Part shown: piece by piece, positions 11,892-64,000 of the stretch
Layout: each line of letters opens with the position of its first letter
How positions within the stretch are numbered: position 1 is the stretch's first letter
NCBI GenBank assembly: GCA_000004985.1
Contig: GG738906.1
Length of the DNA stretch: 64,000 nt
Direction: 5' to 3' (one strand)
From: Naegleria gruberi
Lineage: Eukaryota
Notes under the pieces: generated by a model
Told to the model about the DNA's origin: nothing
The model's database searches: none
Seen by the model: the letters and a program-made list of their open reading frames with translations, nothing else
Program-made: the position numbers and the translations under genes

Positions 11892-14800
11892 TTACAAATA
11901 AAGGGAACTACTGAAAACAATGTCACGTCTCATTTTCTCCAAACCAATCAATAATTTCTTTTCAATAGTTTCTTCACCTATGGCCTTAGCAGCAGCACAC
12001 ATTTGTCTTACAATTTCTTCACATCGTCTCATTGATCTTACAATAGATCCTTCAAAAATCTCTGTCATTTTACAAATATCTACAAACTTGGCACCGTTGC
12101 ACCAGGCAAATGTTAAATTCATCATATTACAAGGGAACGATTGTAAATACTTGTCGGTATCCAACTCTAATTTTGACTCGATTGATACTTCAGCAACTCT
12201 TCTAGCTGCTTTTTCTAACTCTTCATAAGGTTTTTTCAATTCATCAACTAGGGCGTCTTTATCATCTTGTCTGTTTTGAGAGGATGTAACTTCAGAAGCA
12301 AAACATGATAAGACTGCAATACATTGTTCTGGAGTTAAATCAGAAAATGCACCATTATAAATCATTTCAGTAATAACTAAACTATCTGCGCTGCTCAATT
12401 CGCAGGCAACTCTACCTTTTGCTGTAATTACGTTATCTTCCGTGGCAAAACCTAACCTTCTTAATACACGCATCATATTCTTGAGTTCCTCCTTCATAAC
12501 CACTTGACCAGTTGTTTTAATTTGTTTCTTAAGAGCTTCAATTTCATTTTCGATTTCTAATTTGCTTTCAAAGAGAGCAATTTGATTCTTGTAATTAATA
12601 TCATCTTTTGAAGCATTTCCATTTGAAGCATTAAGTTCATATTGATAAAATGGACTATAGGATAATCTTGATTCCAATTGTTGAATGGTATCTACTACAT
12701 TTTTAACCTGAGCTCTTGCAATACCCATTTCTTCAACCAAATCTAGTCTTGGTACGTCTCCATACTTGTAAACAGACAATTTATCAATACTCATCATACC
12801 ATCAGTCGTTTCGGTGGTAGGTTGAGATTTGAATCTTGAAATTGTTTCCAAAAGCTTTAAAATAGTAGATTTAGCTTCTCCAGAGTTTGCATCTGGCCTG
12901 GACTTCATTTCCTTAGACAAGTAAACTTTAACAGAGCTGTAACATTCAATCAAGTCAACTGATAATGTCTTGATTATTGGCTTTGGCTCTAAAGACTTTT
13001 TGTATTCCTTAACAGGGTATGGCTCATTTGGCTTATCTGGATGTGATGGCAGTAAAATATCAATCAAGTAGTCTGAAGATTTAGTTTGGTTAATTTGCAA
13101 TTTTTCTGCGTGTTTCTTCTTGGTAAACTTGATCAAAATACCCCAACCAAAGCCATTAATTCTTAAAAGGCGACCTGCACTAAGTACAGGAATTGAATAT
13201 TTAGGTGTTGTAATGAGTTTTCTCAAATTATTGTACTCGTTTTCCAATTCTTTTTTCATGTTATAGTAGGATGATAATTGTGGCTCATTTTCAATCTTCA
13301 TTGAATCTCTCTTTACAATTGTTTCATTCAATGTTTGTTCAAAAGCAAGTCGTTTCTTTTCAGATTGGTATTGGAAAAATGATCTTTCCATAATATACTC
13401 CGGAGTAATTTCTTCTACTCTCAACAAGTTAAGCACCATGTAATAGCTCAAATGGAATGAAGAGTTTAAGCAATCAGCAATACCATTCATAAGTTGTTTG
13501 GCATCTTCCTCTCTCAAATCTGGATCGTCCATAATTAAAATAACAATACCTTTGTCATCCAAACCTCTACGACCAGCACGGCCACTCATCTGAATATATT
13601 CACCTGAAGTTAAACGTCTGGTGATTTGACCATCATACTTTTCAATACCTGTAAACAAAACAGTTTTTGCAGGCATGTTCAATCCCATAGCAAATGTCTC
13701 TGTGGCAAATAAAACTTTGATTAAACCTTCCTGGAATAGAATTTCAATAACTTCCTTCATAATTGGTAACAATCCAGAATGGTGAACTCCAATACCTTTC
13801 TGTAATAGTGGTAACATTGTTTCTACTTGTGGTAATTTACGATCTTCATCAGATAAAGAATCAATAGCATTATTAAATACCTCTGCAACCAAACTCATTT
13901 CTTCCTCGTCATTGAAATTGGACTTGGAGAGAGAGACAGCTCTTGTTTCACATTCTTTTCTGGAAAAACTGAAAACAATGACTGGTTGGAAATTTCTCTT
14001 CATAATCATATTTACCAATTTAACAAGAGATGTGTCGACTCTCTTTTTACGATCTCCACCACTCACTTTTCCTGAACTGTTTACATTTCCTGACCCTGAT
14101 CCACCAGATGTCACATTTTTTGATGCATTATTCAATTCTTCAACTGCCTTTTTCCAATTATCTTGTTTGAATGTATGTTTATCTACAACCAAGTGTATTC
14201 CCTGTCCACCAACAGGATAAATATAATGTTGTAATGGTGTTGGTCTGTAGTCTGTGTAAACCACATGAACTGGTTGTCCTTTCAATTTTGCAATCCAACC
14301 AGCAAATTCTGTTGCGTTTGGCATTGTAGCAGATAAGAAGACATATTTAACAGAATTTGGAAGTAAAATTAAAGTTTCTTCCCAAACTACACCTCTCTCC
14401 TTATCACGCATATAGTGAACTTCATCGAAAATAACCCATTGCACTTCATTCAAAATTTCAGATCCTCTATAGAGCATACTTCTCAAAATTTCTGTTGTCA
14501 TAACTATACAACTAGAGTTAGGATTGATAGTAACGTCACCAGTCATAAGTCCAACATCTGTAAATTCTTCTTGTAATTCTCTGAATTTCTGATTTGATAA
14601 AGCTTTAATAGGTGATGTATAGATGACTCTGCTTCCATCCTTTAATGACTTTGCAATAGCATATTCGGCTACTGCTGTTTTACCAGCACTAGTGTGGGCA
14701 CTGACAAGAACACTTTGTGATAATTCAATGGCACGAACGGCTTGTCTTTGAAATGCATCAAGAGTAAATGGGTATTCCTTTGCAGCTTGTTTTAATCCTA

Positions 14801-15284
14801 ATTCAACCTGTGTTTTTTGTTCCATCATAAAATTAACAATTTCGCTTGGATTCGATAAAACATTACTTGAAACTTCCGAACCATCAACACTACCCACTCC
14901 TGTCTGGGAATTAATAGAATAATTTGGAGGTAGAGCAATTTCGTGTAAACAATCGTTCTTCTCACCTAATTTACCAATAGATTTTGATGCAGAATTATTC
15001 ACAGAAACAATTGTTGGTGTACTTGTGGTTCTTGTAAGTTGTGTAGAATCATCAATAATTGTTGGTGTTGGTATGTATAAAGCTTCTTCAGGTAATGATG
15101 TTTCCGAAGTTTCCTCCGATGAAGTGATATCAACAATGACAGGCTTTAATTTCTTATTTTCTCTCAGTTCAACATCACGCTCAGCAATTTTTATTGATTC
15201 TTCTAGTGTTCTCTTTTTTGATTGTTGTTGATTGGTGGATGTTCCAAACACATTGAACAAGTCATCTTGTGAGAATGGATCCAT
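11892..15284 (-). CDS. Ski2/Mtr4-family DExH RNA helicase (exosome-associated), 1130 aa, single exon.
   Basis: Walker A AHTSAGKT, DEVH box FDEVHYMRD, an arch/KOW-like insertion and a DSHCT-type C-terminus ending ...RDIVFSSSLYL. Size and the short N-terminus resemble Mtr4 more than Ski2, but I could not discriminate the two. Confidence 0.85.
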   Translation of the reverse strand: MDPFSQDDLFNVFGTSTNQQQSKKRTLEESIKIAERDVELRENKKLKPVIVDITSSEETSETSLPEEALYIPTPTIIDDSTQLTRTTSTPTIVSVNNSASKSIGKLGEKNDCLHEIALPPNYSINSQTGVGSVDGSEVSSNVLSNPSEIVNFMMEQKTQVELGLKQAAKEYPFTLDAFQRQAVRAIELSQSVLVSAHTSAGKTAVAEYAIAKSLKDGSRVIYTSPIKALSNQKFRELQEEFTDVGLMTGDVTINPNSSCIVMTTEILRSMLYRGSEILNEVQWVIFDEVHYMRDKERGVVWEETLILLPNSVKYVFLSATMPNATEFAGWIAKLKGQPVHVVYTDYRPTPLQHYIYPVGGQGIHLVVDKHTFKQDNWKKAVEELNNASKNVTSGGSGSGNVNSSGKVSGGDRKKRVDTSLVKLVNMIMKRNFQPVIVFSFSRKECETRAVSLSKSNFNDEEEMSLVAEVFNNAIDSLSDEDRKLPQVETMLPLLQKGIGVHHSGLLPIMKEVIEILFQEGLIKVLFATETFAMGLNMPAKTVLFTGIEKYDGQITRRLTSGEYIQMSGRAGRRGLDDKGIVILIMDDPDLREEDAKQLMNGIADCLNSSFHLSYYMVLNLLRVEEITPEYIMERSFFQYQSEKKRLAFEQTLNETIVKRDSMKIENEPQLSSYYNMKKELENEYNNLRKLITTPKYSIPVLSAGRLLRINGFGWGILIKFTKKKHAEKLQINQTKSSDYLIDILLPSHPDKPNEPYPVKEYKKSLEPKPIIKTLSVDLIECYSSVKVYLSKEMKSRPDANSGEAKSTILKLLETISRFKSQPTTETTDGMMSIDKLSVYKYGDVPRLDLVEEMGIARAQVKNVVDTIQQLESRLSYSPFYQYELNASNGNASKDDINYKNQIALFESKLEIENEIEALKKQIKTTGQVVMKEELKNMMRVLRRLGFATEDNVITAKGRVACELSSADSLVITEMIYNGAFSDLTPEQCIAVLSCFASEVTSSQNRQDDKDALVDELKKPYEELEKAARRVAEVSIESKLELDTDKYLQSFPCNMMNLTFAWCNGAKFVDICKMTEIFEGSIVRSMRRCEEIVRQMCAAAKAIGEETIEKKLLIGLEKMRRDIVFSSSLYL

Positions 15285-15577
15285 GACGATGAAATTTTTT
15301 TTTCAATTTAAATGTTGATAACAAGGTAAAGTTTTGCAACTTCGAAAAAGTTGATGATGATTGTTGTGCACATGAAATACTTTCTTATTTACATTGAAAA
15401 TTTTGGCTGTTATTTGTTTGGCAACATAGCCATGGCAGAGTGCTTGATGATATTGAAAGGAAATATTGTGCAACAAGACAAAAATAGGTTTGTAAACTTT
15501 TGTGTTGGGAAACAAAAAATTAACGACTTGTTTGATTGGTTGGGCTTGTTTGTGGCAGACACAAATCAAAAAAAAAT

Positions 15578-17081
15578 ATGAGTGTGTTAGACCTGCTTGG
15601 TGATGAAATCAACAATGCAGACGGAGAGGAGGTAAGTACCTCTGTCTCCAATATTATAGGGGAGCAAGGCAGTACAAACATCGTTTCCACAACTTCATCT
15701 TTGGCCACATCATCTACTCCACAACAATCATCTTCTGGTAATAGTACCACCATCCAACGACCTCCCTCCACCACTGCTAGCACCACTAAACCTTGGGGAA
15801 GATTAGTACTGGTAAGCACCGGATGTTCTGATATTCCAAAAGAATTCTTCCTCTCCGAAGATGTTATTAATATTGGCAGAATGCAAACCAACAATGTGAG
15901 AATTTTTTCGAAACAACAATCCAAATTTGTTTCAAGAAACCATGCCCAAATTAAAAAAATCAATGCTTTCACTTTTGAAATCGAAGATAAAGGGAGCATG
16001 AACGGTACACTGGTGAACGGCAAAAAGATTCAAACCTCCAAATTAAAGTAAGTACTACTTTTAATTCTCAATAATAACTATGCGCAGACATGGAGACTTG
16101 ATTATTATTACTGGAGGACCAACAGCCAATGTCAATGATTACATTACAGTTAATGACAAGAGGAGAGAAATGTTTCAAAACGAACAAGATTGGAAATATG
16201 AACTCACTACCCAACTCAAACAAGCCTTTATCTATAGATTTGAACTTTTAGATCAGAATGCTATAATGAAAAGTTTAAGCTCTGTTATCTCAGAGCCTGT
16301 TTCAAAACAAGAAGAAAAATCTGTAGAGAATATTAGTCGAGATATTTCTATAACACAAACACAAAAACCACTTCCAGATAATAAGAGAAAGATTGACGAC
16401 ACTGATTTAGCAACTAGTGAAACTGGAAAGAAATTTAAAGCACTTTCTGATTCTTGCACAAGCGAACTCACTTGTTGTATTTGTTATAATCTTTTCGTGG
16501 AACCAACAGTTCTTGAATGTGGTCATAATTTTTGTAAACGTTGCTTGTATGAATGGCTAGCAAAGAATCACTCTTGTCCACTATGTAGAAAGAAGCTATC
16601 AAAGGGGTCATACCCTAACAGATCTATAGAAACTATTCTAAATTCTTACGTTCAACATGTTTCCTGTACTGACGAACAAAAGCTAAGAGAAGACAGAATT
16701 AAACTCATTCAACAGAAATTCGATGAAGATTTAGCTAAATTACACGGAATGATTGAGAATGCCAAGGCTAAAAAGATTAAATTTTTAAATATTAAGGACA
16801 GATGGAAACTAGAAGAAAAGAGAACCTTCAAGAATGGTGTAAAACAGTACTTTGGAAAATGCAGAGAAGATTTTTGTAATTTAGTTGGTATGACTGAAAA
16901 TTTTGTCAATAATTGCACCAACGAGGAATTAATAATTGCATGTGATAATTTGGAAATACCTGTTGCTTACATGATTGTTGGACAAGAAATTAAAACAATG
17001 AGGCGAGTTGTTGACTTTGATCAGACTAGACAAAGATTGTTGAACTTTTGGAATGCTGCAGATAATTTATTTTTCATTTAA
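15578..17081 (+). CDS. FHA-domain + RING-finger E3 ubiquitin ligase (CHFR/RNF8/Dma1-like). Exons 15578..16047 and 16088..17081; 40-nt intron 16048..16087 (GTAAGT...GCGCAG).
   Basis: FHA signature GRLVLVS...GR...VSRNHAQI...DKGSMNGTLVNGKKI in ORF 15536..16051. C3HC4 RING CCICYNLFVEPTVLECGHNFCKRCLYEW...CPLCR in ORF 16080..17081. The splice is phase-2 and yields ...QTSKLK|HGDLIIITGG. ATG at 15578 follows an A-run. Confidence 0.7.
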
Positions 17082-18154
17082 TTACTTTTTTTCCTTTTTC
17101 TTTTTTGCTTTCTTTTTAGGTTTGTTTTTTTGTATGTGTGCTTTTAGGTTGGAGACCATTTGAGTGGTTAGAATCTTGTAAGCTGCCTTATCAACACGTT
17201 CGTACAATCTTATCCTAATTAAATTTTCCTTGGTTTTGGCTAGCTCTGCAAACATTAGCACCGCATTAGAGTCAACTACAATGTAATTTAAATCAATATT
17301 TTGTAAAGCATTAAATGTGTTTTGAGTGATCGATTCACAAAACTTGGCAACAATGTCAGTCCTTAGAGGTGTTCCTTCTCCACACCCTGATAAATTAAGT
17401 TGTTGAAGTTTTTGAGATGATAACAATGCAGTTGCAATTGCTTCAAATCCCCTTTCTCCAAATGTATTTCCTTGTAATTCAAGATTTTGAAGAGAGGGAG
17501 ATTTGCTGATTGCCTCTGATGCAAGTGCTACAGCTCCTTCATCCTGAATTCCACAATAATTTAGAGATAATTTAGACAGTGAAGGGCTCCAAGCTATTCC
17601 GACTGCTAAAAGACAAGCTCCTTCATCTCCAATTTCATTATGATCCAAAATTAACGTTGTAAGAGTTTCATTGTTTTGTAAAGCACGTGATAGAGCACTA
17701 CAACCCTTGGAACTAACTCGATTGTCAATTAATTCCAATTCTTTAAGTTTTGGATGAGGTTGTAACCACTTTTTGAAATGATAAGCATTGCCATTTTCCA
17801 ACATACCTTTCCGATTAATTGTACAGTTTTATCATTCATATTGTTTCTCCAAAACGACATTTTTTCATATCCTGGCATATTTACATCTAAATTTTCCAAT
17901 AATATTTGTATTGCTTCTGTAGAACATTCTTCCGTAATAAGGAATGGAATGTTTAATGTTGGAGGACCTTCCTCCGATTTTGATAGACGATTTAGTTTTT
18001 GAACAATAGAAGGGAGGGGCACAAGACTTTTATCTTGGCAGGCCTTTTCGTAGGATTTCAAAAACTTTTTAATTGCTTTTCTATTATTTTCAATTTCATC
18101 TCCTTCCTTTGCTGATGATGATTTTTTGGCACTTGAGCTAGGTTTTGGAGGCAT
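17082..18154 (-). CDS. RNI-type leucine-rich-repeat protein with a Lys-rich C-terminal tail. Exons 17807..18154 and 17082..17768; proposed 38-nt intron 17769..17806 (GTATGT...AAAAAG).
   Basis: ORFs 17729..18154 and 17082..17804 overlap in different frames. A GTATGT donor sits exactly at a codon boundary after ...QLIGK, and the acceptor ttcaaaaag|tgg continues as WLQPHPKLKELELIDNRVSS. RNI-like repeats follow (LTTLILDHNEIGDEGA..., LSKLSLNYCGIQDEGA...). Alternative reading: two separate, overlapping genes. Confidence 0.5.
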
Positions 18155-18367
18155 TAAGGGCAGTTTTTTTTCGGTTGAAAATTTGTATTTTACTGATTAC
18201 TTTTCCATTAATTTACGGTAACATTATTAGACCGCTTATTCCAATAACAAAAGAAATACAAACAAGGGTAAGCACGAATCAGAGGATGGGCGAAGTTGTC
18301 AATGAAAAAGTCTCGTATTTACATTATTTCATAACAGTTTCGATTTACTTTTGAAAAATAAAAAAAA

Positions 18368-19991
18368 ATGGAACAGCTCTTAACGGCTAGGTGGGCTCAA
18401 CAATCTAACTCTCCCCTAGAGTCAGCACCATCATCACCGTTAAAAACAAGATTGAGCGTTTCCAAAACAACTCTATCAACAACAATTAAAAATTTTGATG
18501 CTGTCGCTAGGATTAATCAAGAAAAAACTAGCAGCCTTAATGGATTGAATTACTTGTATGATACCGATGATAGTGAATCTGATTCGGGATCTTCATCAGA
18601 CTCTGAACAAAGTGAAGCTACAGAAAAACGGTATCCATTCACTAATGCTGTCGAAGAATACAAAAAGAAAACAATCCTTTTAGGCTCATCAAGAAAAAGC
18701 AATATTTCATCTCCTCAAAATCTGCCCTCATCTCACAGAGTCGCTTCTCCAAGAAATGATACTGGCTATCAAAGTGTAAAAACAACGAAGAAAATACTTG
18801 GAAAAAATCATATCGATGAGTTAAAATCTCAAGTAGTTGATGACACATGTTTTATTGCTAATATAATCAAGGGAAGCCCAACATCAAAGAAGGAAAACTC
18901 ATCAAAGACTCCAACGATTCTAAAAAAGGAGAATGAATCAAAAAATGTTACTCCAAGTGTTAAAGAAGGTAAGTGAAACATTAAACTTATTTTAACTTTG
19001 CATTTCACAAGATGGGCTAAAATCTATTTTGGACGAACATAAATTAGACATTGAAGAATTGGAGTTTTTAGAGGTTACTTCTTCTGAAGATGATGAAATT
19101 GAGATAACAAAAGAAAAAGTTGAAATAATTTCAGGAGAAGATTCTATCAGAATTGAAAAAGAATCTGCTCGTGAATATTTTGAACGACTGTTACAGGATG
19201 CCAAAAAGAAAGAGCCAAAGGAAGTTAGAGATTACGAGAGAATGGCAGACTATGCCCTGGAAAAGTCATTGGAATCTTTGAAAAAAACTATTGACGATGT
19301 TGATATCACAAAAACTGAGACCTTCCAACATGTTTCACAGAGAAGAAGAATGTACGACTCTCTCAAGAGAGGACTAGGTGCTAGAGATTTCATGGTGGGA
19401 GTAGCAGGATCAAGCGAAGCAGCTGATGAGTTGCTCTCTAAAATTGGGTTATCACCAATCGCACCCAAGACACCTTCCTCTCCTCATCCACCTAATTCTC
19501 CAAGTAGTACTCCTCAAACATCGTCACCAGTAAAGGATAAAAAATCTAAAAGAACTAAGGAAGAGGAAGATAAAGTTCTTGACAGATTATCAAAACCGAG
19601 AAGCCATCATTTGTACAGAAAAAATGATGAAAATAATAAGAGTATTACTCATTCAGTGGCCACATTAAGCGAAAAGTTTTTGGATAGGATGAAAAATTAT
19701 GAAGAAATGAAGAAATTGAAACTTGAAGAGTTACGATCTCAAATGAATCAAAAAAGAAATCAAGATATTAGCTTTTCTCCTAGGATTAACAATAATTCGA
19801 AATCAATACATAGAAATATTAACTCTCTTCTCTCATGGCACAAAGAAAAGAGCATGAAACATGAAAAGTTGCTCTTGAAGAAACAAGAAACCGATTCAAT
19901 AATTGATTGTACTTTTTCTCCTGAAATTAGTGAGCGATCTCAACGATTGGCAAAAAGAAAACCAAACATTCCTTTATCATTGCGCGATTAA
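18368..19991 (+). CDS. Hypothetical Ser/Glu-rich protein (about 527 aa). Exons 18368..18968 and 19012..19991; 43-nt intron 18969..19011 (GTAAGT...CACAAG).
   Basis: ORF 18368..18976 ends at a GTAAGT donor (phase 1). The acceptor restores the frame of ORF 19029..19991 (...SVKE-D-GLKSILDEHKLDIEE). No recognisable domain. Confidence 0.55.
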
Positions 19992-20028
19992 AATGTATAT
20001 TAATTTCCAATAAATCAATTATTTACAA

Positions 20029-22683
20029 TTAATCATCTTGCTCATCTTCTTCATTAATGGAAACTCTCCTATTTGATTTGGGTTTTACAACAGAAAAGTC
20101 AGAAAAATCTGATCTACCTTCAAGCTCCAGATTCTGCTCATTACAAATATGAAGCATGCAAATAAAGCAAAAAGGAATAGAAGCTTCAGAAAAATCTGGT
20201 TTTCTTTCTCCTTCTTTTGGTTTTGTTGTATTAACAGTCGAGACAACGGAAGAGAAGTCAAGTTTCTTATCATCAGATGACCTTATTTCTTTCCATAAAT
20301 GTTCTTTGAGAGCTCTGACGTCAACCTGTTTGGCTTTGGATTCGTACTTGATATTTAATTTTGAGACCTTCTTTGGAGCTTCTATTAGCTTTTCACCTCC
20401 AACTGTATTTGCTGTAGAATTGAGATTTTGAGTAGCTACTTGAATTTCTTTTTCATCCAAAAGTGAGGCTGAATCATTGAGTTTGATAGTATCATATTGG
20501 AAAGTGTCTTGTTGTGTTTGATATGTTAAATTTGGATCTTGCATTATGATCTCTGTTGTCGGCTCAATAGTAGGCTCAATATTGGGTTGAGTGAGATCAT
20601 CTGTAATCATATCAAATCCACCCAAATCCATATCAAACCCACCAATTTCTGTCATTGGTTGATCGTTCTCATCATCACTTTCATCATAAAGCTGACTTGA
20701 ATGAATTACCTTCATTCCTCCTTCAGTGGTTTTCTGCCTTTTGCTCGTATCTATCACTACAGGTTGTTTAGATTTTTCAAAATTAAATCTTTGAGATCCT
20801 AATTCATTAATAGAAACAGCTTTCAACGATCTGTTTGTGAATATTGGTGGGAGTTTGAAAGGTTTCAGTAGGGTCGCCAGATCGTAGTGAAAATCTTCTG
20901 GTAAAAGTGTAGTCTTTTGAGCATTAATGGATTTTTCTGCCATTTGGTTCTTTTCTGGTTTACTACTAATTTTAAAATCTGTTGCAAAATCAATCTTGTC
21001 ACAATCTGTTAAAAAGTCAAATTTGAAAGCTTCTTTTTGAGTTCTCTTTTTTGTAGTCTTTTTGTTGGTATGAGTTGTGGATTTTACTGTTGGTTTCCAA
21101 TGGTCAATACCCGACCAATGTCTAATTTTTGTAACATCAAAGTATGCATAATCATCGTCAACAGTTAAAGATTCTGGATCCTTTTGCAACATATCAAGGA
21201 ATGAGAGTTGTTTGTCATTTTCAGATTCTTTTTGTTTTTCTTCTATTGTAACAATTTCTTCACCTGAATCTGAAGTTTGGGTTTCAATAGGCTCAGGATT
21301 GGCAAAATCAGTATCAAAAAGACCTCCCTCATCGTCATCATCATCTTCATGATCAACATTTTCAAAGTGGTCAGGAGCAAGTCCTCCAACTTCGTGTACT
21401 GCATTAATTAAGGCTGCTCCTTCACAGCCGATGGATATTTTGTGAGGAATTTCTTGTGTCATATTGAGACCAGCAATTTCATCAGGTACCATTGATTGAA
21501 TATCATCAATACCTGTTTCCAATCCCCCAAGCTCAATATCGAAATGTTGGTTTGGATTGATTTCTAGCTGTTGGAGTTGATCGGATTCCCCAACGAGAGA
21601 TGTTTTCTCCTCAGATTGAAGAGGTGGAGGTTGTTCATGATTGACTTCTTCCTCATCCTCCATCATTGATGAGTTATTAAAAGATTTAATGGTGCTCTTA
21701 TCTAGCGTAATATTATTTGCATGTTCTTCCACTTCTTCTTCTACCTGGAATGGAATTGGTTGCACAGATTGTTGTGGAATATTCTCAATAATTTTAGAAT
21801 ATTTGTAGTCCCAACTCTTTGAATCTATAATCACCTCACAACCTAACCCTAAACCCAAATTATTCAATAATAATGAGTGAGCACTCCCAACATCAAAATT
21901 ATTTGAAGAACCAGTAGAGTTATGGTATAGTGGCTCGATCATATAGTTGAGATCTAATTTTTTAACAGTAATATTGTTCACGTTTGTTTCTAATGTATTG
22001 ACTCCATATCTTACACGTTTTTTCTTTGTTTTTTCCTCTGACTTATCAGAATCCTTTCCTTCTTGGTTATTTTCTGTTTCGTCTGCTTTTCCTTTCTCCT
22101 GTGTTCGGGCAAAGCTGCCCAATACTTTATACGTCTCAGAGTGAATAGAATCCACACGAGTAGAGTAAATTTTAACGCCTGCATCCAAAGTGCAACTAGC
22201 TGTTTGAAATGTACCACCACCCAAGTTAGATCCTAATACTTCACCAATATAGTCAAGCAAGTTCAACTCCCAAGCATTTTTTGTAGTAATCTTATTCTCT
22301 GTTGAGAGTTTAATACAATTCATAAATAATTCTTCCAATTCTGAAGGAGAAACATGTCTGGAAGTTGTTGATGGTCTGTGTACTCCACTTTTCCGACTTG
22401 TTGCTCCTGCTAAAAATTTAGAAGATGCAGGAACAACACTTTTACGCTTCCTCCTATTATTCATCTTTTCTTCATCGTCATTGTTAATATCTAAATTAGC
22501 AGTTGGAGCAAATAATGTAGATTTTCTTCTGGACGATTGATTTTGTCGTACAGGAGCAGGACTTTCAATAGTGATCGATCCTGTTGAATTTCGTTTACTA
22601 GATTTTGGTGATAACGTTTCCTCTTCTTCATCTTCCTCATCTAAAAGATTATTGTCCTCTTCACTGCTATCTTGTCTTGGCAT
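20029..22683 (-). CDS. NCAPH: Condensin complex subunit 2 (kleisin CAP-H/Barren/Brn1), 884 aa, single exon.
   Basis: N-terminal kleisin motif ...LDAGVKIYSTRVDSIHSETYKVLGSF and the C-terminal winged-helix motif ...IPFCFICMLHICNEQNLEL, both characteristic of Barren/CAP-H. Acidic low-complexity middle region. Confidence 0.8.
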   Translation of the reverse strand: MPRQDSSEEDNNLLDEEDEEEETLSPKSSKRNSTGSITIESPAPVRQNQSSRRKSTLFAPTANLDINNDDEEKMNNRRKRKSVVPASSKFLAGATSRKSGVHRPSTTSRHVSPSELEELFMNCIKLSTENKITTKNAWELNLLDYIGEVLGSNLGGGTFQTASCTLDAGVKIYSTRVDSIHSETYKVLGSFARTQEKGKADETENNQEGKDSDKSEEKTKKKRVRYGVNTLETNVNNITVKKLDLNYMIEPLYHNSTGSSNNFDVGSAHSLLLNNLGLGLGCEVIIDSKSWDYKYSKIIENIPQQSVQPIPFQVEEEVEEHANNITLDKSTIKSFNNSSMMEDEEEVNHEQPPPLQSEEKTSLVGESDQLQQLEINPNQHFDIELGGLETGIDDIQSMVPDEIAGLNMTQEIPHKISIGCEGAALINAVHEVGGLAPDHFENVDHEDDDDDEGGLFDTDFANPEPIETQTSDSGEEIVTIEEKQKESENDKQLSFLDMLQKDPESLTVDDDYAYFDVTKIRHWSGIDHWKPTVKSTTHTNKKTTKKRTQKEAFKFDFLTDCDKIDFATDFKISSKPEKNQMAEKSINAQKTTLLPEDFHYDLATLLKPFKLPPIFTNRSLKAVSINELGSQRFNFEKSKQPVVIDTSKRQKTTEGGMKVIHSSQLYDESDDENDQPMTEIGGFDMDLGGFDMITDDLTQPNIEPTIEPTTEIIMQDPNLTYQTQQDTFQYDTIKLNDSASLLDEKEIQVATQNLNSTANTVGGEKLIEAPKKVSKLNIKYESKAKQVDVRALKEHLWKEIRSSDDKKLDFSSVVSTVNTTKPKEGERKPDFSEASIPFCFICMLHICNEQNLELEGRSDFSDFSVVKPKSNRRVSINEEDEQDD

Positions 22684-22713
22684 TCTTTTTTAATAAACTT
22701 TTTCAAACAAAAA

Positions 22714-22726
22714 ATGGCGGGAAAAC
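22714..22726. promoter_or_regulatory. E2F-like site TGGCGGGAAAA (reverse complement TTTTCCCGCCA), about 30 nt upstream of the condensin CAP-H start codon, in a 282-nt divergent intergenic region.
   Basis: Matches the E2F consensus TTTSSCGC/TTTCCCGCC. It is a rare GC-rich element in an otherwise about 85% AT spacer. Confidence 0.35.
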
Positions 22727-22965
22727 AAATATGCTTGTTCACAACTTTAATTTATTATTACTATGTGTTCTTTGAAATAATATTTGCTATCAGAGAAATA
22801 TAAGATTTAGTTCAGTATTATTTGGAATAATTTATGAAGATTTTTAGATAGAATTACTGTTTTATTTAATAATGTTATTATTATTAGATTAATAATTATC
22901 ATAATAAATTTTGAAATTGAAATTTAAAAAAATAAAATCCAACATCAATACTCTTCCTCTATTAA

Positions 22966-44603: not shown

Positions 44604-46897
44604 TTATTGAGATAAAGATCCTCTTACAATTTCTACCAAAGATGTCAATAATTGGAAAACAACAGTAGTTTGAGGATTGATTAAAATCTTAAACAGAGCA
44701 TTTCTTAAATTTTGGCTATCAGCTTGCTCATTATCTGAGGCAATGTCATTAACATCAACTACCTTATTAATAAGTTCCATTTGTTGTGCTAGGAAAGAAG
44801 AAATTAGAGGATGAGATTTGATAGGTTCTTCCATTAATTTTGCCAATAAGTCTAATACCTTCTTTTCATTCTCATCAATGACTTGTTCATTCTTAATAAG
44901 TTCACCCTTTTCGTAGAGTTGAGAAAACTTTCTACCCTGTGCATCTGTGTAGTGAGTTTCCCCTTCAATTTGTCCGTCAACCCAATATCCCTCAAGAGAT
45001 TCTTTACTGTCCAAAAGAACAAATCTTCCTCTCCCATCAAATTTACCTCTTTTCCAATAACCAACATATGTGTATCCAGATGATGAAAAAGTTCCATAAC
45101 CATCAGAGAAATCACCAAGCCATTCACCTTCATAAACATCACCATTAGGATAGGATTGTTTGCCAAAACCTTCTCTCTTATCATTGTTCCATTCCCCATC
45201 ATAATGGGACTGATTTGCAGCAAATTTCATTTTACCCCTTCCAGATTTGATTGAATTTATAAAGTGGCCTTCGTAGACATCTCCTGAGGCATATTTATAA
45301 ATACCTTTACCTGTTATGGAATCTTTTGAGAATTCACCTTCGTATTTGGATCCATCTGTAAACACCATCTTACCTGCTCCATCTCTCATATCATCAATAA
45401 AATAGCCTTCATATACACCTCCATCGTTGTACATTAAAATACCAAAACCGTGCTTTTGTCCATTTGTGTTTGTGTCACCTTTATAAAATGGTTGGTTGCA
45501 ATCCATATTAAGATTATCACCAAGTCCACTACCAATCGAAATATTATGTGGTAATGTGGCTATATCAATTGAACTTTCAGATTCAACCGATGTTATGGAA
45601 GACAGATTATTCTCTACTTCTAAAACCATCTTAACAGACACTTGCCTTTTGTGATACACTCGGCTTAATGTAGCAGTATTATTAACAACAGTAGGGGTTG
45701 TACTGGCACCAATACTATTCAAATCTTCATCCTCAGTTTGATCATTGCATGTTTGAGAGGTTGCTGTATTTTCATCATTTGTCTGAATGTCTGAAACACC
45801 ATCCTCAAATATTTGAGGAGCATTGACTATTAATGACTTGATGACGTTGGTTGCATTGGAAATATCTCTAATAGTTAGCATGGGATCTTGATCTTTCAGA
45901 TATAATATATTAGGTTGAATTACAATAGCAATATTTTCAGGACTCATTAAATTCTAAAATTCAAACAAATTGAAATAACAATAAATAAAATATTAACAAA
46001 CATTAATAATAAAATAAAAATTAGTTCAATATTTTTGAAATTATTACATACCACTTGTTGTTTTTTCGAAACAGTATTTAAAAATAGGCAAAGTTTTTTT
46101 AGCAGTACATAATTTGCTCTGGGCAAAAGACCACAAATTTGTTGTAATAATTGACATTTACGACTAGTTTCCAATTCCTCAAGTTCTGAAGGTGATAAAT
46201 TATTTGTATCATTATTTGATATTGAAGTGGTATTAATCATTTTTGAAGTTGCAAGAAATGATTCGTATAGTTTGTTTGTTAATAGTGGTTCTCTCAGTTT
46301 CCTCAAATAAACCTTAATGAGAGAGGCTGCTAAATGTACATCTGCATATTCATTAAAATCAACTGTAGCCATTTTAGCTCCACCACTTTTAAATAATTCA
46401 TCAATTTCTTTCATTACCTTTTCTTCTCTACTCTTCGATGTAGAATGTCTGAAAATACCTTGAGTTTCCAAGCCATGTTTCTCCAAATAGTCCATGGCAT
46501 GAAATAGGAATTGGGGAATGTGTTCAGGTGAATTGGAAGGAAATTCATGGCCCCAAATGGTATCCTGATTCAAAATTTTAGAAAGTCCACCATTGATACC
46601 AGTACTACTACTACCCTTTGAATTTTCACCACCATTCAATATTTGTGATGATGAGGATGTTGAAGAGGAACGAGTGGAATTCTTTTTTCTTTTACTTCTT
46701 GTGGTGGTGGTGGAACCGTTATTATTACTACTACATGAGGATTCATCATCATCATGTTGCTGCTGTTGCTTGTCATGTTCATTAATCATTCCTTGTAACT
46801 GATCGTAGAGTGCAGTGGATTTTTGACCGTCAGTGTTTTTGAAGAGTGCCACAGATGCTCTGGGCTCTAATTTGATACGGGAAAATAGTCTTCTCAT
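44604..46897 (-). CDS. RhoGAP-domain protein fused to C-terminal MORN repeats (about 730 aa). Exons 46052..46897 and 44604..45953; 98-nt intron 45954..46051 (GTATGT...TTTTAG).
   Basis: ORF 45947..46897 carries a RhoGAP domain (…GIFRHSTSKSREEKVMKEIDE…, LLPRANYVLLKKLCLFLNTVSKK) and ends in intron read-through. A GTATGT donor follows KQQV. The acceptor ttttag|AATTTAATG continues as NLMSPENIAIVIQPNIL (RhoGAP motif N.M...NLA.VFGP.LL) into ORF 44604..45947, which holds at least 7 MORN repeats (YEGYFIDDMRDGAGKMVFTDGSKYEGEF...). Confidence 0.7.
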
Positions 46898-52415: not shown

Positions 52416-52640
52416 ATTATTGATAGTTAATATTATATTAATATTACACTATTGTTATCAATCACATAAAATTCTATTGAAACAATACTAGTCAATAAAC
52501 AAATACAATTATTAAAAATTAAAGCATCCGCCATGTCGCCGATAATAAATAATAGACCTTCCTTTCCTATCACAAATAAATAGAAGAAATGTGAAGCAGG
52601 AGATCCATTCAACAACACATTTCAAAAAAAATCAAATATC

Positions 52641-54324: not shown

Positions 54325-55053
54325 TTATCTTGGTACGGTGGCTAATCCCTTTTTCAGTAAATTGGTGACTTGTTCCTTGCTGAAATTGAAGGCAATCCCT
54401 ACTAGTCTGAAAAATTCTTTAGGTGTTTCCTGCAAGGCAGCTGTTAGCACCTTACCATCAATCTTTTGTGCTCCTTGTTTTTTCAATACGTACAAGTAGA
54501 AAAGTGCTGCAAGAATTGCAATACCTCCAACTACTCCAACAACCACACCAACAATTATACCAATAGATTCCTCTGTGGACAGGGCAGAAAACTTCACAAT
54601 AATATCCATGGTTGCTTGATTGATACCATCAGGAGGATTTATCTCAAAATCAATTGTTTTTCCATTAGAAGTACTAGCTTTGATAGGAATACTAAGCTTC
54701 ATTGATTTGTCAGTGTCCAGATATTGTTTTTGATCTAAAGCAACCTCTTTGGAACCGCCATTCTCATCACTAACTGAAACAAGTATAGATGATGTCACAG
54801 TGACAGTGAATAATCCTTGCTTATCAGAGTTGGTAGGCTTGATTTCAATTTCCACTGTTTTATCCTCACTTGTTGATATTGTGTATACCAGATATTTCTT
54901 TGAGGGGTTAGTCATTGTTACCCTAGTTGAACCTTCCATTACTTTATCAACTTGATTAATTTTTCTAAGTTTCCCTATTGAAAGTGTTGCATTAATAATT
55001 GATGCCGAGAGGAAAACCGTAAGGATGAACAGTTGTAGATGATGTTTGTTCAT
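54325..55053 (-). CDS. Small type-I membrane protein (about 242 aa from Met-41): signal peptide, Ser/Thr-rich ectodomain, one TM helix, short cytoplasmic tail. The ORF extends upstream to 55173, but the signal peptide begins at the internal ATG.
   Basis: MNKHHLQLFILTVFLSASIINA (signal-peptide-like) ... IGIIVGVVVGVVGGIAILAALFYLYVL (TM) ... KKQGAQKIDGK.... Confidence 0.45.
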   Translation of the reverse strand: MNKHHLQLFILTVFLSASIINATLSIGKLRKINQVDKVMEGSTRVTMTNPSKKYLVYTISTSEDKTVEIEIKPTNSDKQGLFTVTVTSSILVSVSDENGGSKEVALDQKQYLDTDKSMKLSIPIKASTSNGKTIDFEINPPDGINQATMDIIVKFSALSTEESIGIIVGVVVGVVGGIAILAALFYLYVLKKQGAQKIDGKVLTAALQETPKEFFRLVGIAFNFSKEQVTNLLKKGLATVPR

Positions 55054-55272
55054 TTTATTTGATTTTACTGAGTGAACTTGTAGGGAGTACGAAAATTTCT
55101 GGCGCCATTTTTGAGCCCTTACATGAGACCACTCAATGACTTTCAACATGTTGATAAACCAGCAGTTGACCATATATTTACAATAAAAATTGATAAGTTT
55201 TTCATTAAAGACATGAAGTAGCTGTTAACTTCTGCCTCTTCTCACTTAAAAAATCATTGAGGAAATTAGAGC

Positions 55273-58200
55273 TTACTTTCTTTTGGTATTTATTTTGGGA
55301 AGCCTAAAATTTTCACCTGAGTCAGTACTTCTAGAGGAGATGGATCTCAAATCCATATCACTTTCAATTTGGGCCGTGTGTGTGACCAGATTTTGTTTGG
55401 TATTGGTTTTTGGTTTTGAAGGTGTTGGAGCGCTGCTTCCTGAGTTCTTTTTAAACATTTCCAACCTTTTCATTGGGTCTTTTCTTTCTTCTTTCAATTT
55501 TTTTTGCATTTTCAACTTGTTCATTCTCTTGTTTTTGGCGAACAAATCTTTAGCTGTTTCAATATTCTTAAAGTTCCAATTATTTTTTAAGGCTTCAAGA
55601 TTTGGGTTCGTTCCATTTTGGCTATCAGAAATGGAATTTTTCAAAATACTATTTGAACTGATTCTAATGGAGTCATCTACATCCTCGTCTTCAACATTTT
55701 CTGAGGTATTGATTGTTGATGTATTCACCTCGTCATCCTCATTAGATATCCATTTCTGATTTTTGGAAAGAGTTGAACTTGATGGTTGAGTAGGGAAAAA
55801 GTGTTCCTTGATATTTTCATCACCTCCATGACTTGTTTTGGTATTTACATCATAATAGTACACTTCGAATTTTCTATTCTTTCTTTTTTCTGGAATTTTT
55901 ACATCTATTAAATCAGTATCCACACCTGTATATTCCAAATCGTCAACTGCATTTTCCAACTCAAATATTTCATCAGCTTCGAATTGTCTAGCCCTTTTTA
56001 AAATAGTTCTAACTCTGTATCCTTTCCAAACAGATTGAATCTTGGTTGCAGCTAGGTGTCTCGTATGAAGAGCCTTAAGAATCCAAGGGAGGTTCTTTTT
56101 TCTGGAAATGTAGCCCTTCCACACCTTTTGAATTTTAACCGCTGCCTCATTCTTAAGTTGATCGTTGTGTTTTCTTTTTGCTACTCGCCAGAATCTGAAC
56201 CATCTCTGGATTAGACATACCGAGTGTATTTTGTTAACCTTTTCCTGGTATTCAGTATTTTGACTGAAATGGTTTTGGTGTTTTTTAGGATTAAAGTTCA
56301 AGTGCTCCTCAAAGTGCTTTGATTTTTGTTCTGACTTTTGCTCATACTGGGATAAACGGGTGTCCAATCTCTTTGAGAAACGTTGCTGAACCTTTTGAAA
56401 GCTCCTCTCATCAAATCTCTCAGCACTAAGGCATTGATGGTAATTATTGAATTGAGATCGCTCAATAACTTGTTTGGAACACATATAATAGTAGGTGGTT
56501 TTTGTATTCCACTCTGTTATTGGAAGGGCTTGTAAACTCCTTTGGGACTTGTCCAAGGTGATGGCATCTCTCATAAATTTATATGAATTTTCTCTCAATT
56601 GATTTGCCTCAATTGACGGAACGCAGATTTTTAGTGAATGATTGATAAATGACACCAAATGGCCCACCAATCTTGGAGAATAGTGAACAAGATGAGAAAC
56701 TACACTAAATCTTGAATTCATGCTTACAGGCTCACCATCAAGATTGTTCAAATTTGGGAGAATTCCAATCAATAATTCTCTATATAAAACACCCTTACAT
56801 ATTGGGTTGTCATTGATTTTAACTTCCTCAATGTTTCTACAATATTTTAGGTGTAATATCTCATCTATTGATTGTATATTGTTGAAAGATAAATTAACAT
56901 TCCTCAACATGATACAATTTGAGAGTGGTGATATGTGTTCAATCTTGTTATTGCTCAAGTTCAAATATTGCAAAAGAGGGGAAAATAAAAATTGGTTAGG
57001 AAGCTGAACAATTTGGTTGGTATTCAAATACAAACTCTTTAAAAGTACTTGATGAAAGGATGGAACTTGCATTATTTTGTTTTGGTACAGTATTAAATCC
57101 TCTAACAATAGGTTATACCTCAAGAAATTGTGAAGAGATTCTAATTCGTTGTATCCACAATCCAAGTATTGTAAATTTGAAAATCCATCCAACACTCTTA
57201 AATCTGATATTTGATTAATATCCACTCGTAAATATTGTAAATTTCTATTATTTTGTAATCCACTCAAGTCTTGAATTTTGTTATTACACATATTAATACC
57301 TCTTAATTGGCAAGTATTTCTTAAAGAACCAAGAGAAGTAATATTATTTCCTATGGCATACAATTCTTTGAGTTTTGAAGCTATTTCTCTGTTCATTTGA
57401 ATTGAGGTTAACCTGTTATCATTTAGTGATAAGCACTCAAGTTGATTCAAATTTTTAAGCGTACCCAAAGATTGAAGAACGTTGGTATCAAGAAAAAGTG
57501 CTCTCAAATTATAGAATGGCTCGAAAACTCTTTCTTTGATTGAAGATATTTCTTCTCCTCTAATATTGATCAATACGACTGTGTTGTCATCCTTTTCAAA
57601 AGGCATGTTGTTCTCCAGTTTTTCTTCATCAAGAATTGAAAAAGGCTTTGAAAGAGATGAAGAGGAACTGTCTTTCACAAGTGTTGGTGTTGGGAGTGGG
57701 GGAGGTTTTGAGAAATTTTTGATTGTTGCTCTCCACCTTTCAAAGTCCTGGAATAGAGTCCAACATTTTGACTTTCTAGAATTCTCTACTGACTCTAATA
57801 TACATTTGATAATGTACAGTCTTTTGATAGATTTTAAACGATCTCTTTCCCTCTTCTTTTCTTCTTCAATCCTCTTTTGTTCCATATCTCTTTTGAGCTT
57901 TTCCTCCTCTTGTTGTTTCCTTCTCTTATCCTCTTCTATTCTCTTAATTTCCTGCTCTTTTCTTATTCTTTCTTCTTCTTCTTTTTTTTTCTTTTCCACT
58001 TCCTTGAGTTTTTTGTCATTGTCAATTTTTTTCTTTCTTTGAAGAGCTTTTTCTGTTTTTAATGCTTCGATTTGTTTCCTTTCTTGTTCTTCCTTGAGTC
58101 TTTGCTCTTCTTGTTTCTTGAGCATTAACTTTTCTAGGATCTCTTGTTTTTCAATTTCCTGCTGCAGTTCTTCTTCTTTTTTTTTCTGGGCTGCTACAAT

Positions 58201-59113
58201 TTGTCTCTCTATTTCAGCTTGCTGTTTCTTGAATAAGATTTCTTGTTGCTCCAACTGTTTCTTGACTTTTTCATTCTCTTGTCTTTCTTCATCATCTCTT
58301 TTTCTCTTCTCTTCTTGATATTTTCTTTGTTTTTCCCTAAGTTCAAACTCTTGCTTTTTCCTTTCTATTTCTCGTTCTCTTTCTTCCTCCTCGAATTTCT
58401 TTTTTAAAAGCTCTGAAGAAGAATTGTCAATGGCTTCTTCTGAAATTGTGATAATATCTACTGTAGTATTCGCTGGTTTGAAATTATTTTGAGATTTCTC
58501 TGTGTTGGGATTGATGGATGTCTTGGCAGGGGTGATAATTTTTGGTACAATTTGAACTTTTTCTTCAACCTATAATCCAATAACTGTTTGTTTCATTAGG
58601 ATTCCAATTAAATCTACTTACAGCAATGGTAACAGATTCTTTGAGTTCTTTTACGGAAGTCAAATAATTTTCAATAAAATCATCCTCATCCAACATTTTT
58701 CTCACCTCATCAATGTCTTCTCCAAAATTAAAATCCTGTTTTGATTCAAATGTTGTTAAGAAAGCTCCATCACCTGATTGCAACTCATTTCTCTTATTCA
58801 CCAACGATTCAAACTCATCCACATATCTGTTGTAATCATCATAGGAAGAGCGAAGAGAAGAAATATCTGTTAATGTGGCCATTACTACAATACCGAAGAA
58901 AAAATACTTACCATCTCTATAATTTTGTTGTTTGAAACTAAATGTACTTGTATTATCGTCACTCTCTTCCTCCTCCTCCAATTCCAAGTTATAATAACTT
59001 AAAAGATCTTTTAGAACAGAATTTGCCCTTGAGGAATCTCTTGGACTACTTATCATGTCATCCATTGTACCTTTAAAACGATCTAAATCCTTCCATAGAA
59101 TTATTGTTATCAT
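55273..59113 (-). CDS. Leucine-rich-repeat + IQ-motif protein with a long Lys/Glu-rich coiled coil (about 1263 aa; LRRIQ1/CEP97-like architecture). Exons 58622..59113 and 55273..58569; 52-nt intron 58570..58621 (GTAAGT...ATTATAG).
   Basis: ORF 55273..58254 continues open upstream to the TAG within ttatag|GTT. ORF 58565..59113 has a GTAAGT donor after ...ESVTIA (phase 0), which joins to VEEKVQIVPKI.... Then comes a KE-rich coiled coil of about 350 aa, then SDS22-like LRRs (LNQLECLSLNDNRLTSI..., LQYLRVDINQISDL..., LQYLNLSNNKIEHI...), then IQ motifs (AAVKIQKVWKGYISRKK, AATKIQSVWKGYRVRTILK). Confidence 0.65.
57850..58400. repeat. Low-complexity polypyrimidine (plus strand) / polypurine (coding strand) tract with TCTTC/TTCTT-type microrepeats. 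It encodes the Lys/Glu-rich coiled coil of the LRR-IQ protein.
   Basis: Runs such as ttcttcttcttttttttt and ctcttcttgtttcttg. Spurious plus-strand poly-Ser/Phe ORFs (57536..58042, 57877..58062, 58094..58318) overlap it. Confidence 0.4.
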
Positions 59114-59245
59114 TAGATAAGTTCGGAACTAGTGGGCTGCTGTTGTTTTTGGCTTGAGCCACATTAATCATCAAATCTATTTATTTTTTTGGTGTTGGTT
59201 TGTACTTGAAAATGGCGGGATAGTTTGTAGTGGGTAAAGGATCCA

Positions 59246-62464: not shown

Positions 62465-62496
62465 TTTTTTAAAGTATTTTTAGGTAACTTCAAGAG

Positions 62497-62527
62497 GAAT
62501 CCCGCCAATTTTAACAACCGCGCCATA
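62497..62527. promoter_or_regulatory. Two E2F-like GC-rich elements (aaTCCCGCCaat at 62498..62509 and aaCCGCGCCat at 62516..62526) plus an overlapping CCAAT in the 87-nt divergent spacer between the RhoGEF and MCM2 start codons.
   Basis: TCCCGCC/GGCGGGA and CCGCGCC/GGCGCGG match the E2F core TTTSSCGC. These are the only CG-containing stretches in this spacer. Confidence 0.35.
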
Positions 62528-62551
62528 AATTTAAAAAAAATAAACCAAAAA

Positions 62552-64000
62552 ATGAATCCGCCAGAAGATGTTGAAACACAAGAGTACGAAGAGGAAATTC
62601 CATTTGATGAAGAGGAGGAGGAAGGTGAAGATTTATTTGCGGATGACGTATTAGAGGAGGACTATACAAAAGGACCAACAGAAGAAGACTTTTATGATGA
62701 GCAATATATTGACAATACTACATACCATCCTATGAGCTATCATGATCGTTTGAACGTTGAAAATTTAATGAATTCTAGAGATGAAGAAGAAGAGGATGAA
62801 ATAGATCAAGCCATTAGACGGAGTGAAAACAAACGTAAGAGTTTGCCTTCTTCCGATGATGCAATTCTACATTTATTGGGAGATGACAATACAGATGAAT
62901 CTCATTCCTTTGAAGAGGACGAAGAAGATGATGGACAAACTTCGTTTGATGAGATTTTTACAGGTGACATTAGAGAAAAAATTGCTATGGAGAGAACAAG
63001 AGCTCTCATATTAAAGGGTTTTAGAAGGTTTTTCACAGAGGAAAAAAGAGAAGTTTATATGGAAGCCATCAAACATGCTGTAGCTAATAATAAGAAATCG
63101 ATAGTTGTCAATTTCACTGATCTTTCAGTTGCTCCTCATCTACTTTTATTATTGACAGATTTACCTGATGCTACCATTGAATTAATGGAAGAAGCTGTAA
63201 ATAGAATTGTAGAATTACAATATCCGAATTATGTGGGAGATGATTTTCATATCAGAATCAAAAACTTGCCAACTGTGGAATCAATTCGTGATTTGAGACA
63301 TTCCAGTTTAAATCAGTTGATATCTGTAAGAGGAGTAGTGACAAGAAGAACTGCCATGTTTCCTCAACTTAAATTTGTAAAGTATGATTGTGTTAAATGT
63401 GGAGAAAGCTTGAGTCCAATAATAGTGAGAAATGCATCAGATGTTTCTAAACCTTCTAGCTGTCCTGGTTGTGCTGGAAAAAACTGTTTCATTATTAATG
63501 AAGCTAAAACTATTTATTCTAATTACCAAAAGATAACAATTCAAGAGCCTCCTGGAACAGTTCCAGCAGGTAGAATACCAAGATCCAAAGATGTGATTCT
63601 TGTTGATGACTTGATTGATTGCACCAGACCTGGAGAGGAAGTTATTGTCACAGGAGTTTATAAACAAAATTATGATGCATTCCTCAATGTGAAACAAGGA
63701 TTCCCAGTGTTTGCCACAATAATAGAAGCCAACTATGTGGAGAAAATATTCGACAAACGAAGTGAAGCCATCACCAAAGAAGATGAAAGAAAGATTCAAC
63801 AATTAGCAAAAAATCCACATATTCAGGAAAAGATTATCAAATCAATAGCACCTTCAATTTTTGGACATGAAGATATTAAGAAGGGTATAGCTTTATCTTT
63901 ATTTGGAGGTGTAAGAAGAGTATCTGAAGAACATACTACAAGAGGTGATATCAATGTTTTACTATTAGGTGATCCAGGTACAGCAAAATCTCAAATCCTT
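62552..64000 (+). CDS. MCM2: DNA replication licensing factor MCM2, N-terminal about 483 aa; 3'-truncated by the window edge. No intron within the window.
   Basis: Acidic histone-binding-type N-terminus, the RRF-type motif ...ILKGFRRFF..., a C4 zinc finger (CVKCG...CPGCAG) and OB-fold region. The MCM box begins with ...GDINVLLLGDPGTAKSQIL (Walker A) at the window edge. The ATG at 62552 follows an A-rich leader. The frame is open to position 64000. Confidence 0.85.
   Translation, partial: MNPPEDVETQEYEEEIPFDEEEEEGEDLFADDVLEEDYTKGPTEEDFYDEQYIDNTTYHPMSYHDRLNVENLMNSRDEEEEDEIDQAIRRSENKRKSLPSSDDAILHLLGDDNTDESHSFEEDEEDDGQTSFDEIFTGDIREKIAMERTRALILKGFRRFFTEEKREVYMEAIKHAVANNKKSIVVNFTDLSVAPHLLLLLTDLPDATIELMEEAVNRIVELQYPNYVGDDFHIRIKNLPTVESIRDLRHSSLNQLISVRGVVTRRTAMFPQLKFVKYDCVKCGESLSPIIVRNASDVSKPSSCPGCAGKNCFIINEAKTIYSNYQKITIQEPPGTVPAGRIPRSKDVILVDDLIDCTRPGEEVIVTGVYKQNYDAFLNVKQGFPVFATIIEANYVEKIFDKRSEAITKEDERKIQQLAKNPHIQEKIIKSIAPSIFGHEDIKKGIALSLFGGVRRVSEEHTTRGDINVLLLGDPGTAKSQIL

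Follow-up and report, generated by a model that had tools for sequence, protein, structure and literature searches.

Genes and base composition of the window

The DNA analysed here (the window) is a 64,000-nucleotide stretch of contig GG738906.1 of Naegleria gruberi. Its GC content is 34% and about 87% of it is open reading frame (ORF), while the spacers range from some tens of bases to a few hundred; the non-coding share is 13%, at 30% GC as compared with 34% in coding DNA. The observed/expected (o/e) ratio of CpG was 0.38 across the 64-kb window, 0.37 in ORFs and 0.50 outside them, and CGCG was found at only two positions in the 64 kb.

Pfam searches bore out the gene identities given in an initial annotation made from the sequence, namely MCM2, the condensin subunit Cnd2/CAP-H, a RhoGEF with leucine-rich repeats (LRRs) and an EF-Tu-type GTPase. 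The ORF of an Mtr4-type helicase (11892-15284) matched a protein of Naegleria gruberi at 100% identity, and exact N. gruberi entries exist for the CAP-H, PI31, Artemis, WD40 and CHFR ORFs, which marks the window as nuclear DNA of this species; exact look-ups with the products of the GTPase, RhoGEF and WD40 genes returned no recorded gene. An Rfam scan of the whole window gave zero matches, and in PDB sequence searches the LRR-IQ and WD40 proteins matched nothing more specific than generic LRRs and WD40 repeats.

Three further features of the window were noted. The ORFs of a RhoGAP (45947-46897, minus strand) and of a MORN-repeat protein (44604-45947, minus strand) overlap by one base without a spacer, and may be a single gene or two genes in very tight tandem. 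The segment 41547-43525 (about 2 kb) holds short ORFs only, with several G/C runs (GGCCGC, GGGGGC, CGGGCGG), and is probably a multi-exon gene that the ORF listing does not resolve. A metagenomic contig reached through the RING/CHFR look-up (ENA ERZ929261, k127_139781) is 99.8% identical to positions 11603-21786 of the window, breaks within CAP-H and continues into DNA of 69% GC encoding a glycosyltransferase, a UDP-glucose dehydrogenase and a PNPase of bacterial type; it is apparently a chimeric assembly.

E2F-type boxes upstream of MCM2 and CAP-H

MCM and condensin genes are classical E2F targets in animals and plants, where the E2F consensus is TTTSSCGC or its complement GCGSSAAA. The features of the MCM2/RhoGEF region are as follows.

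62465..62551, between divergent genes: spacer of 87 nt, from the RhoGEF-LRR ATG at 62464 (minus strand) to the MCM2 ATG at 62552 (plus strand)
62499..62508, plus strand: E2F-type box 1, ATCCCGCCAA, with the core CCCGCC (GGCGGG on the other strand)
62517..62526, plus strand: E2F-type box 2, ACCGCGCCAT, with the core CGCGCC/GGCGCG
62552..64000, plus strand: MCM2, N-terminal 483 codons, the gene running off the window; Pfam domains MCM2_N, MCM_N, MCM_OB and MCM

The initial annotation had reported two GC-rich strings at 62497-62527, aaTCCCGCCaat and aaCCGCGCCat, in a spacer of 87 nt, and both the strings and the length were found as described. The MCM2 ATG is preceded at 46-51 nt by the core of box 1 and at 28-33 nt by that of box 2, which contains one of the two CGCG tetramers of the window. 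The spacer is presumably a bidirectional minimal promoter. The orientation that these boxes have in common with the others of the window, read in the sense of the downstream gene, mildly favours MCM2 over the RhoGEF gene as the gene that they serve, although the spacer may equally act in both directions.

When the MCM2 fragment was compared with a collection of 5.8 billion protein sequences, the best match was only 56% identical and no Naegleria protein was returned, as against 100% for other proteins of the window; the N. gruberi MCM2 model may be absent from that collection or different there. The contig encoding this best match comes from an unrelated GC-rich organism, and scanning metagenomes with MCM2 gave no relative either.

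The CAP-H region has the following features.

22714..22725, minus strand: E2F-type box upstream of CAP-H, TTTTCCCGCCAT in gene sense, the sole exact TTTSSCGC match in the window
20029..22683, minus strand: CAP-H/Cnd2, condensin subunit 2, 884 aa, identical to EFC38620.1 ('Condensin complex subunit 2')

Since the protein is identical to the N. gruberi entry EFC38620.1, the CAP-H start codon agrees with the public annotation. The spacer between CAP-H and the GTPase gene measures 282 nt (22684-22965), as had been claimed, and TGGCGGGAAAA occupies positions 22715-22725, at 32 nt from the ATG of CAP-H (22683) and near the distance of about 30 nt given initially. The box is an exact TTTCCCGC, and its core is 33-38 nt upstream of the ATG. 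A full listing gave no other run of five or more G/C in either spacer, in agreement with the description of these strings as the only GC-rich stretches there.

Further boxes in the window

Two more boxes, both missed in the initial annotation, and a weaker relative were found.

59212..59221, minus strand: box holding the third TCCCGCCA of the window, ATGGCGGGAT, in gene sense ATCCCGCCAT
55273..59113, minus strand: LRR+IQ gene, about 1262 aa, exons 59113-58622 and 58569-55273 (gene model made here)
55098..55108: E2F-type box with a palindromic core, TCTGGCGCCAT, including TGGCGCCA at 55100-55107
54325..55053, minus strand: small signal-peptide/transmembrane (TM) gene, 242 aa, signal peptide at the N-terminus (MNKHHLQLFILTVFLSASIINA) and TM segment at the C-terminus
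52527..52535: weaker relative of the boxes, ATCCGCCAT = ATGGCGGAT, in the divergent WD40/oxidoreductase spacer, its core lacking the last S

The first of these boxes is located in a spacer of 132 nt that follows the RhoGEF stop codon; the LRR+IQ gene has its first ATG (59113) about 100 nt downstream of the box. In our model an intron of 52 nt (58621-58570, GTAAGT...TATAG) joins the ORFs 58565-59113 and 55273-58254. The predicted protein combines an N-terminal region and a K/E-rich coiled coil with LRRs of the SDS22 type and IQ motifs. This architecture recalls CEP97 or LRRIQ1, but the PDB matches to the protein were to generic LRRs. A chimeric query masked for low complexity (CAP-H, the MCM2 N-terminus, LRR-IQ, RhoGEF and the TM protein) returned only three irrelevant giant LRR proteins. 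The gene also has a 27-nt in-frame GTAAGT...TAG at 58910-58884, possibly spliced, and a short upstream ORF beginning at 59172-59174.

The TGGCGCCA box falls inside the mechanically defined ORF 54325-55173. The true start of the TM gene is probably the ATG at 55053, the mechanical ORF beginning 120 nt too early; this ATG opens a typical signal peptide, and with such a start the box would lie about 50 nt upstream of the start codon. The protein matched no Pfam family, and neither its long nor its short form had an exact sequence in the protein collection.

Other spacers had been described as free of the motif. This was the case for Artemis(SNM1)/PI31 and Mtr4/CHFR, where nothing comparable was seen, but the WD40/oxidoreductase spacer holds the weaker ATGGCGGA at 52528.

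Shared anatomy of the boxes

The initial annotation had held that its three boxes all fit TTTSSCGC. The CAP-H box does so exactly, whereas MCM2 box 1 has one mismatch (TATGGCGC) and box 2 has two (AATCCCGC), all of them in the T-run. The strict 8-mer is thus matched by one of the five promoter boxes, and the other four have an A-rich flank beside the core in place of the T-rich one of the textbook site. What all five have in common, including the three that were noted initially, is an SGCGSS core. Read in gene sense, each gives SSCGCCA followed by A/T-rich sequence.

CAP-H: TTTTCCCGCCATTTT
LRR-IQ: CTATCCCGCCATTTT
MCM2: GAATCCCGCCAATTTT and AACCGCGCCATAAA
TM gene: TGGCGCCAGAAA

The TM-gene box is uninformative on orientation because its core is palindromic. 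TCCCGCCA(A/T) and AAATGGCG also resemble motifs that HT-SELEX has given for E2F7/8 and E2F2/3. An E2F-specific class of 8-mers, NNSGCGSN with the consensus GCGSSAAA, has been distinguished from the fungal SBF class NNCRCGNN (PMC4862756), and each of the five boxes agrees with the former.

E2F, DP and Rb proteins of N. gruberi

From the boxes it had been argued that the organism has an E2F/DP-Rb pathway, and such a pathway is indeed on record, with NgruE2F, NgruDP, NgruDEL and NgruRB all published (PMC4862756, supplementary files 4 and 6). Pfam assigned E2F_TDP and CC-MB domains to NgruE2F, and E2F_TDP and DP domains to NgruDP, the E2F_TDP matches being at 1e-28 and 2e-18. The recognition motif reads RRIYD in NgruE2F and RRRVYD in NgruDP, and NgruE2F ends in EGEGVSDLF. 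This C-terminus resembles the pocket-binding EGEGIRDLF of human E2F1. The RRXYD motif is invariant and contacts the GCGC core, and the N. gruberi DEL sequence has two DNA-binding domains (PMC4862756).

Boxes in relatives and a possible link to flagellar genes

DNA of relatives was examined at four short loci, about 70 kb in all. The Mtr4 loci of N. fowleri, N. lovaniensis, Willaertia and a JGI Naegleria-like contig had no synteny with the window. The CpG o/e ratio was 0.65-0.66 in the loci of N. fowleri and N. lovaniensis and 0.43 in that of Willaertia. Intergenic SGCGSS cores were few in these 70 kb and lay upstream of flagellar genes.

N. fowleri, locus position 7976-7985: CFA20 box, TTTGCCGCGC
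N. lovaniensis, locus position 8462-8471: CFA20 box, TTTGCCGCCA
Willaertia magna, locus position 18648-18659: ParcG box, a perfect palindrome, TTTGGCGCCAAA, with ParcG about 130 nt downstream; GC content of the locus 24%

In both Naegleria species TTTGCCGC stands about 70-75 nt upstream of CFA20, the 8-mer being kept while its immediate flanks differ.

The CFA20 boxes, the ParcG box and the TCCCGCCA box upstream of the CEP97/LRRIQ1-like LRR+IQ gene are leads to the idea that in Heterolobosea the E2F-type box also marks genes for the basal bodies and flagella that are built de novo in the amoeba-to-flagellate change. We regard this as rather improbable at present. If true, it would parallel the control of centriole amplification by E2F4/5-multicilin in animal multiciliated cells and would suggest an ancient link between E2F and centrioles.

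Rarity, placement and alternative explanations

The boxes could in principle be GC-rich strings that arose by chance in AT-rich spacers and have no function. Two of the counts would agree with this: SGCGSS occurs at six places in the 64 kb, its nine strand-matches being only mildly above the 4.1 expected (7 of 100 shuffles reach nine), and TTTSSCGC with one mismatch showed no enrichment in the window (52 as against 47 expected). Against it, TCCCGCCA has three matches in the window where 0.16 are expected, a number that none of 100 dinucleotide shuffles reached, and SSCGCCAW has five matches against 0.86 expected from shuffles. Placement is also far from random, as five of the six SGCGSS places are non-coding (P=2e-4) and five of six lie less than 110 nt upstream of a start codon, at about 30-105 nt (P=9e-6, or P=1e-4 when the two MCM2 boxes are counted as one); the zone up to 110 nt upstream makes up 6.9% of the window, and the start codons of the LRR-IQ and TM genes in this test are from models made here. 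Since the tests were chosen after the motif had been seen and the sample is one 64-kb window, these P values are indicative only. The orientation of the boxes is consistent, and they persist in a CpG-depleted genome. Pure chance is nevertheless no serious explanation and very unlikely on present evidence, and the boxes are real, non-random and probably functional elements.

A functional element need not be a cell-cycle switch, and the boxes could be general or housekeeping GC boxes used on many unrelated genes and read by E2F/DP or by another factor. Of the four upstream regions with a box, two are those of the LRR+IQ and the secreted/TM gene, which have no cell-cycle annotation, the spacer with the MCM2 boxes is common to the RhoGEF gene, the boxes of the relatives are upstream of flagellar genes, and Cryptosporidium parvum has E2F-like motifs before 2,379 genes, in which no particular pattern of expression was seen (PMC3734150). 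The box may therefore be a broader promoter element. However, both canonical E2F targets have the box, its core is the E2F-specific SGCGS, and it is not a general core element since only about four of some 30 promoters of the window have it; a role unconnected with the cell cycle is the less likely reading. It could also be envisaged that the boxes are mainly repressor sites, used by DEL (E2F7/8-type) or, through a CDE/CHR-like pair, by a DREAM-like complex, instead of activating E2F-DP sites. Three boxes read TCCCGCCA(A/T), which we take to be the preferred E2F7/8/DEL site, the N. gruberi DEL with its two DNA-binding domains is available, and CHR-like hexamers adjoin three boxes, as listed here.

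22698-22722, CAP-H: CCCGCCA-N7-TTTGAA
59203-59220, LRR-IQ: CCCGCCA-TT-TTCAAG
62488-62506, MCM2 box 1: TTCAAG-N6-CCCGCCA

Their spacing and orientation are nevertheless unlike the canonical CDE-N4-CHR, and a canonical pair (TTYGAA 4 nt downstream on the same strand) was ruled out by spacings of 7, 2 and 6 nt in mixed orientation. Such hexamers are common, at about five per kb of non-coding DNA, so that their co-occurrence with the boxes is only marginal (P ~0.02, a post hoc estimate). A mainly repressive role is quite improbable. Boxes of the SBF/MBF type were likewise ruled out, as ACGCGT had no match in the window and all seven CRCGAAA matches were inside ORFs.

Proposed function

The boxes, which are rare, alike in orientation and placed just upstream of start codons in an organism that possesses E2F, DP, DEL and Rb, are probably genuine E2F/DP sites in minimal promoters. 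Rare E2F-like boxes are likewise promoter-proximal in N. fowleri, N. lovaniensis and Willaertia, the perfect TTTGGCGCCAAA among them. Within the window both classical E2F targets, MCM2 and CAP-H, carry a box, as do two or three of the roughly 28 remaining genes; with four or five box-bearing genes among about 30, the probability that both targets would have one by chance is about 0.01-0.02. Artemis/SNM1 and CHFR, other genes of DNA repair or checkpoints in the window, are without a box. The boxes of the window would be placed at or near the transcription start of very short promoters, where the single typical E2F, paired with DP, would recognise the SGCGS(S) core through its RRXYD helix. The Rb orthologue would dock at the C-terminus of E2F and repress transcription outside S phase, and phosphorylation by CDK would free E2F and allow MCM2 and CAP-H to be switched on. 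DEL could act as a repressor on the same TCCCGCCA boxes. Binding of the factors, dependence on Rb and periodic expression are thus predictions of this scheme. The proposal of a conserved cell-cycle cis-logic, made in the initial annotation, holds insofar as both classical targets carry the box and the factors are present; it is weakened by the two of four box-bearing regions that serve genes with no known role in the cell cycle, by the RhoGEF gene that shares the MCM2 spacer, and by the flagellar genes of relatives and the Cryptosporidium motifs.

Literature searches of the library covered retrieved no paper on E2F sites in Naegleria, and a search with the literal box sequences retrieved primers only. 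The boxes are apparently an undescribed yet expected instance of the ancient E2F/Rb switch and no new kind of element; as the E2F/DP/Rb proteins of N. gruberi have already been catalogued, the finding is confirmatory and unsurprising, and the flagellar-gene lead is the sole part that could raise its interest. If confirmed, it would mean that the cis-code of E2F, beyond the E2F/DP/Rb proteins, reaches Discoba, among the lineages furthest from animals and plants. It would also provide candidate cell-cycle promoters of less than 100 nt for Naegleria, in which promoters are little known, and SGCGSS in a CpG-poor genome would be a simple handle for predicting the E2F regulon of N. gruberi and of the pathogen N. 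fowleri.

Comparison with known systems

The boxes share with the E2F sites of animals and plants the SGCGS core, a position that is apparently promoter-proximal, and the target genes; Naegleria, too, possesses E2F, DP and Rb as well as an atypical E2F. In contrast, the Naegleria promoters are far smaller (the 87-nt spacer being an example), four of the five boxes are without the T-run, and the Naegleria boxes are candidate sites. The CDE/CHR tandem elements of animal G2/M genes resemble three of the Naegleria boxes in that a TTTGAA/CTTGAA-like hexamer stands near a GGCGG-type element; in Naegleria, however, the hexamers are spaced at 7, 2 and 6 nt instead of 4 and in mixed orientation, and they accompany the boxes barely more often than chance would give.

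Among protists, the compact AT-rich genome of Cryptosporidium parvum, with its tiny spacers, provides near-identical boxes (TGGCGCCA and TTTGGCGGGAA), and E2F-like motifs (DTTGSCGCCH, TTTGGCGGGAAV) are its most abundant upstream motifs (PMC3734150). In that species the motif precedes most gene clusters and has no tie to the cell cycle, as opposed to about four of some 30 promoters in the window. In Dictyostelium, like Naegleria a free-living amoeboid protist, mcm2-7 and the condensin subunits, all of them and H too, are derepressed when the Rb orthologue RblA is lost, so that both kinds of target are Rb-repressed (PMC3386910). That evidence is based on expression and comes from Amoebozoa, whereas the Naegleria case is one of cis-sequence in Discoba.

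The fungal SCB and MCB elements (CRCGAAA and ACGCGT, read by SBF and MBF) are also CG-centred promoter elements of G1/S genes that partly overlap E2F sites, and SBF was not found outside fungi (PMC4862756). Because a G, and not C or R, precedes the CG, the Naegleria boxes belong, unlike SCB and MCB, to the E2F-only class.
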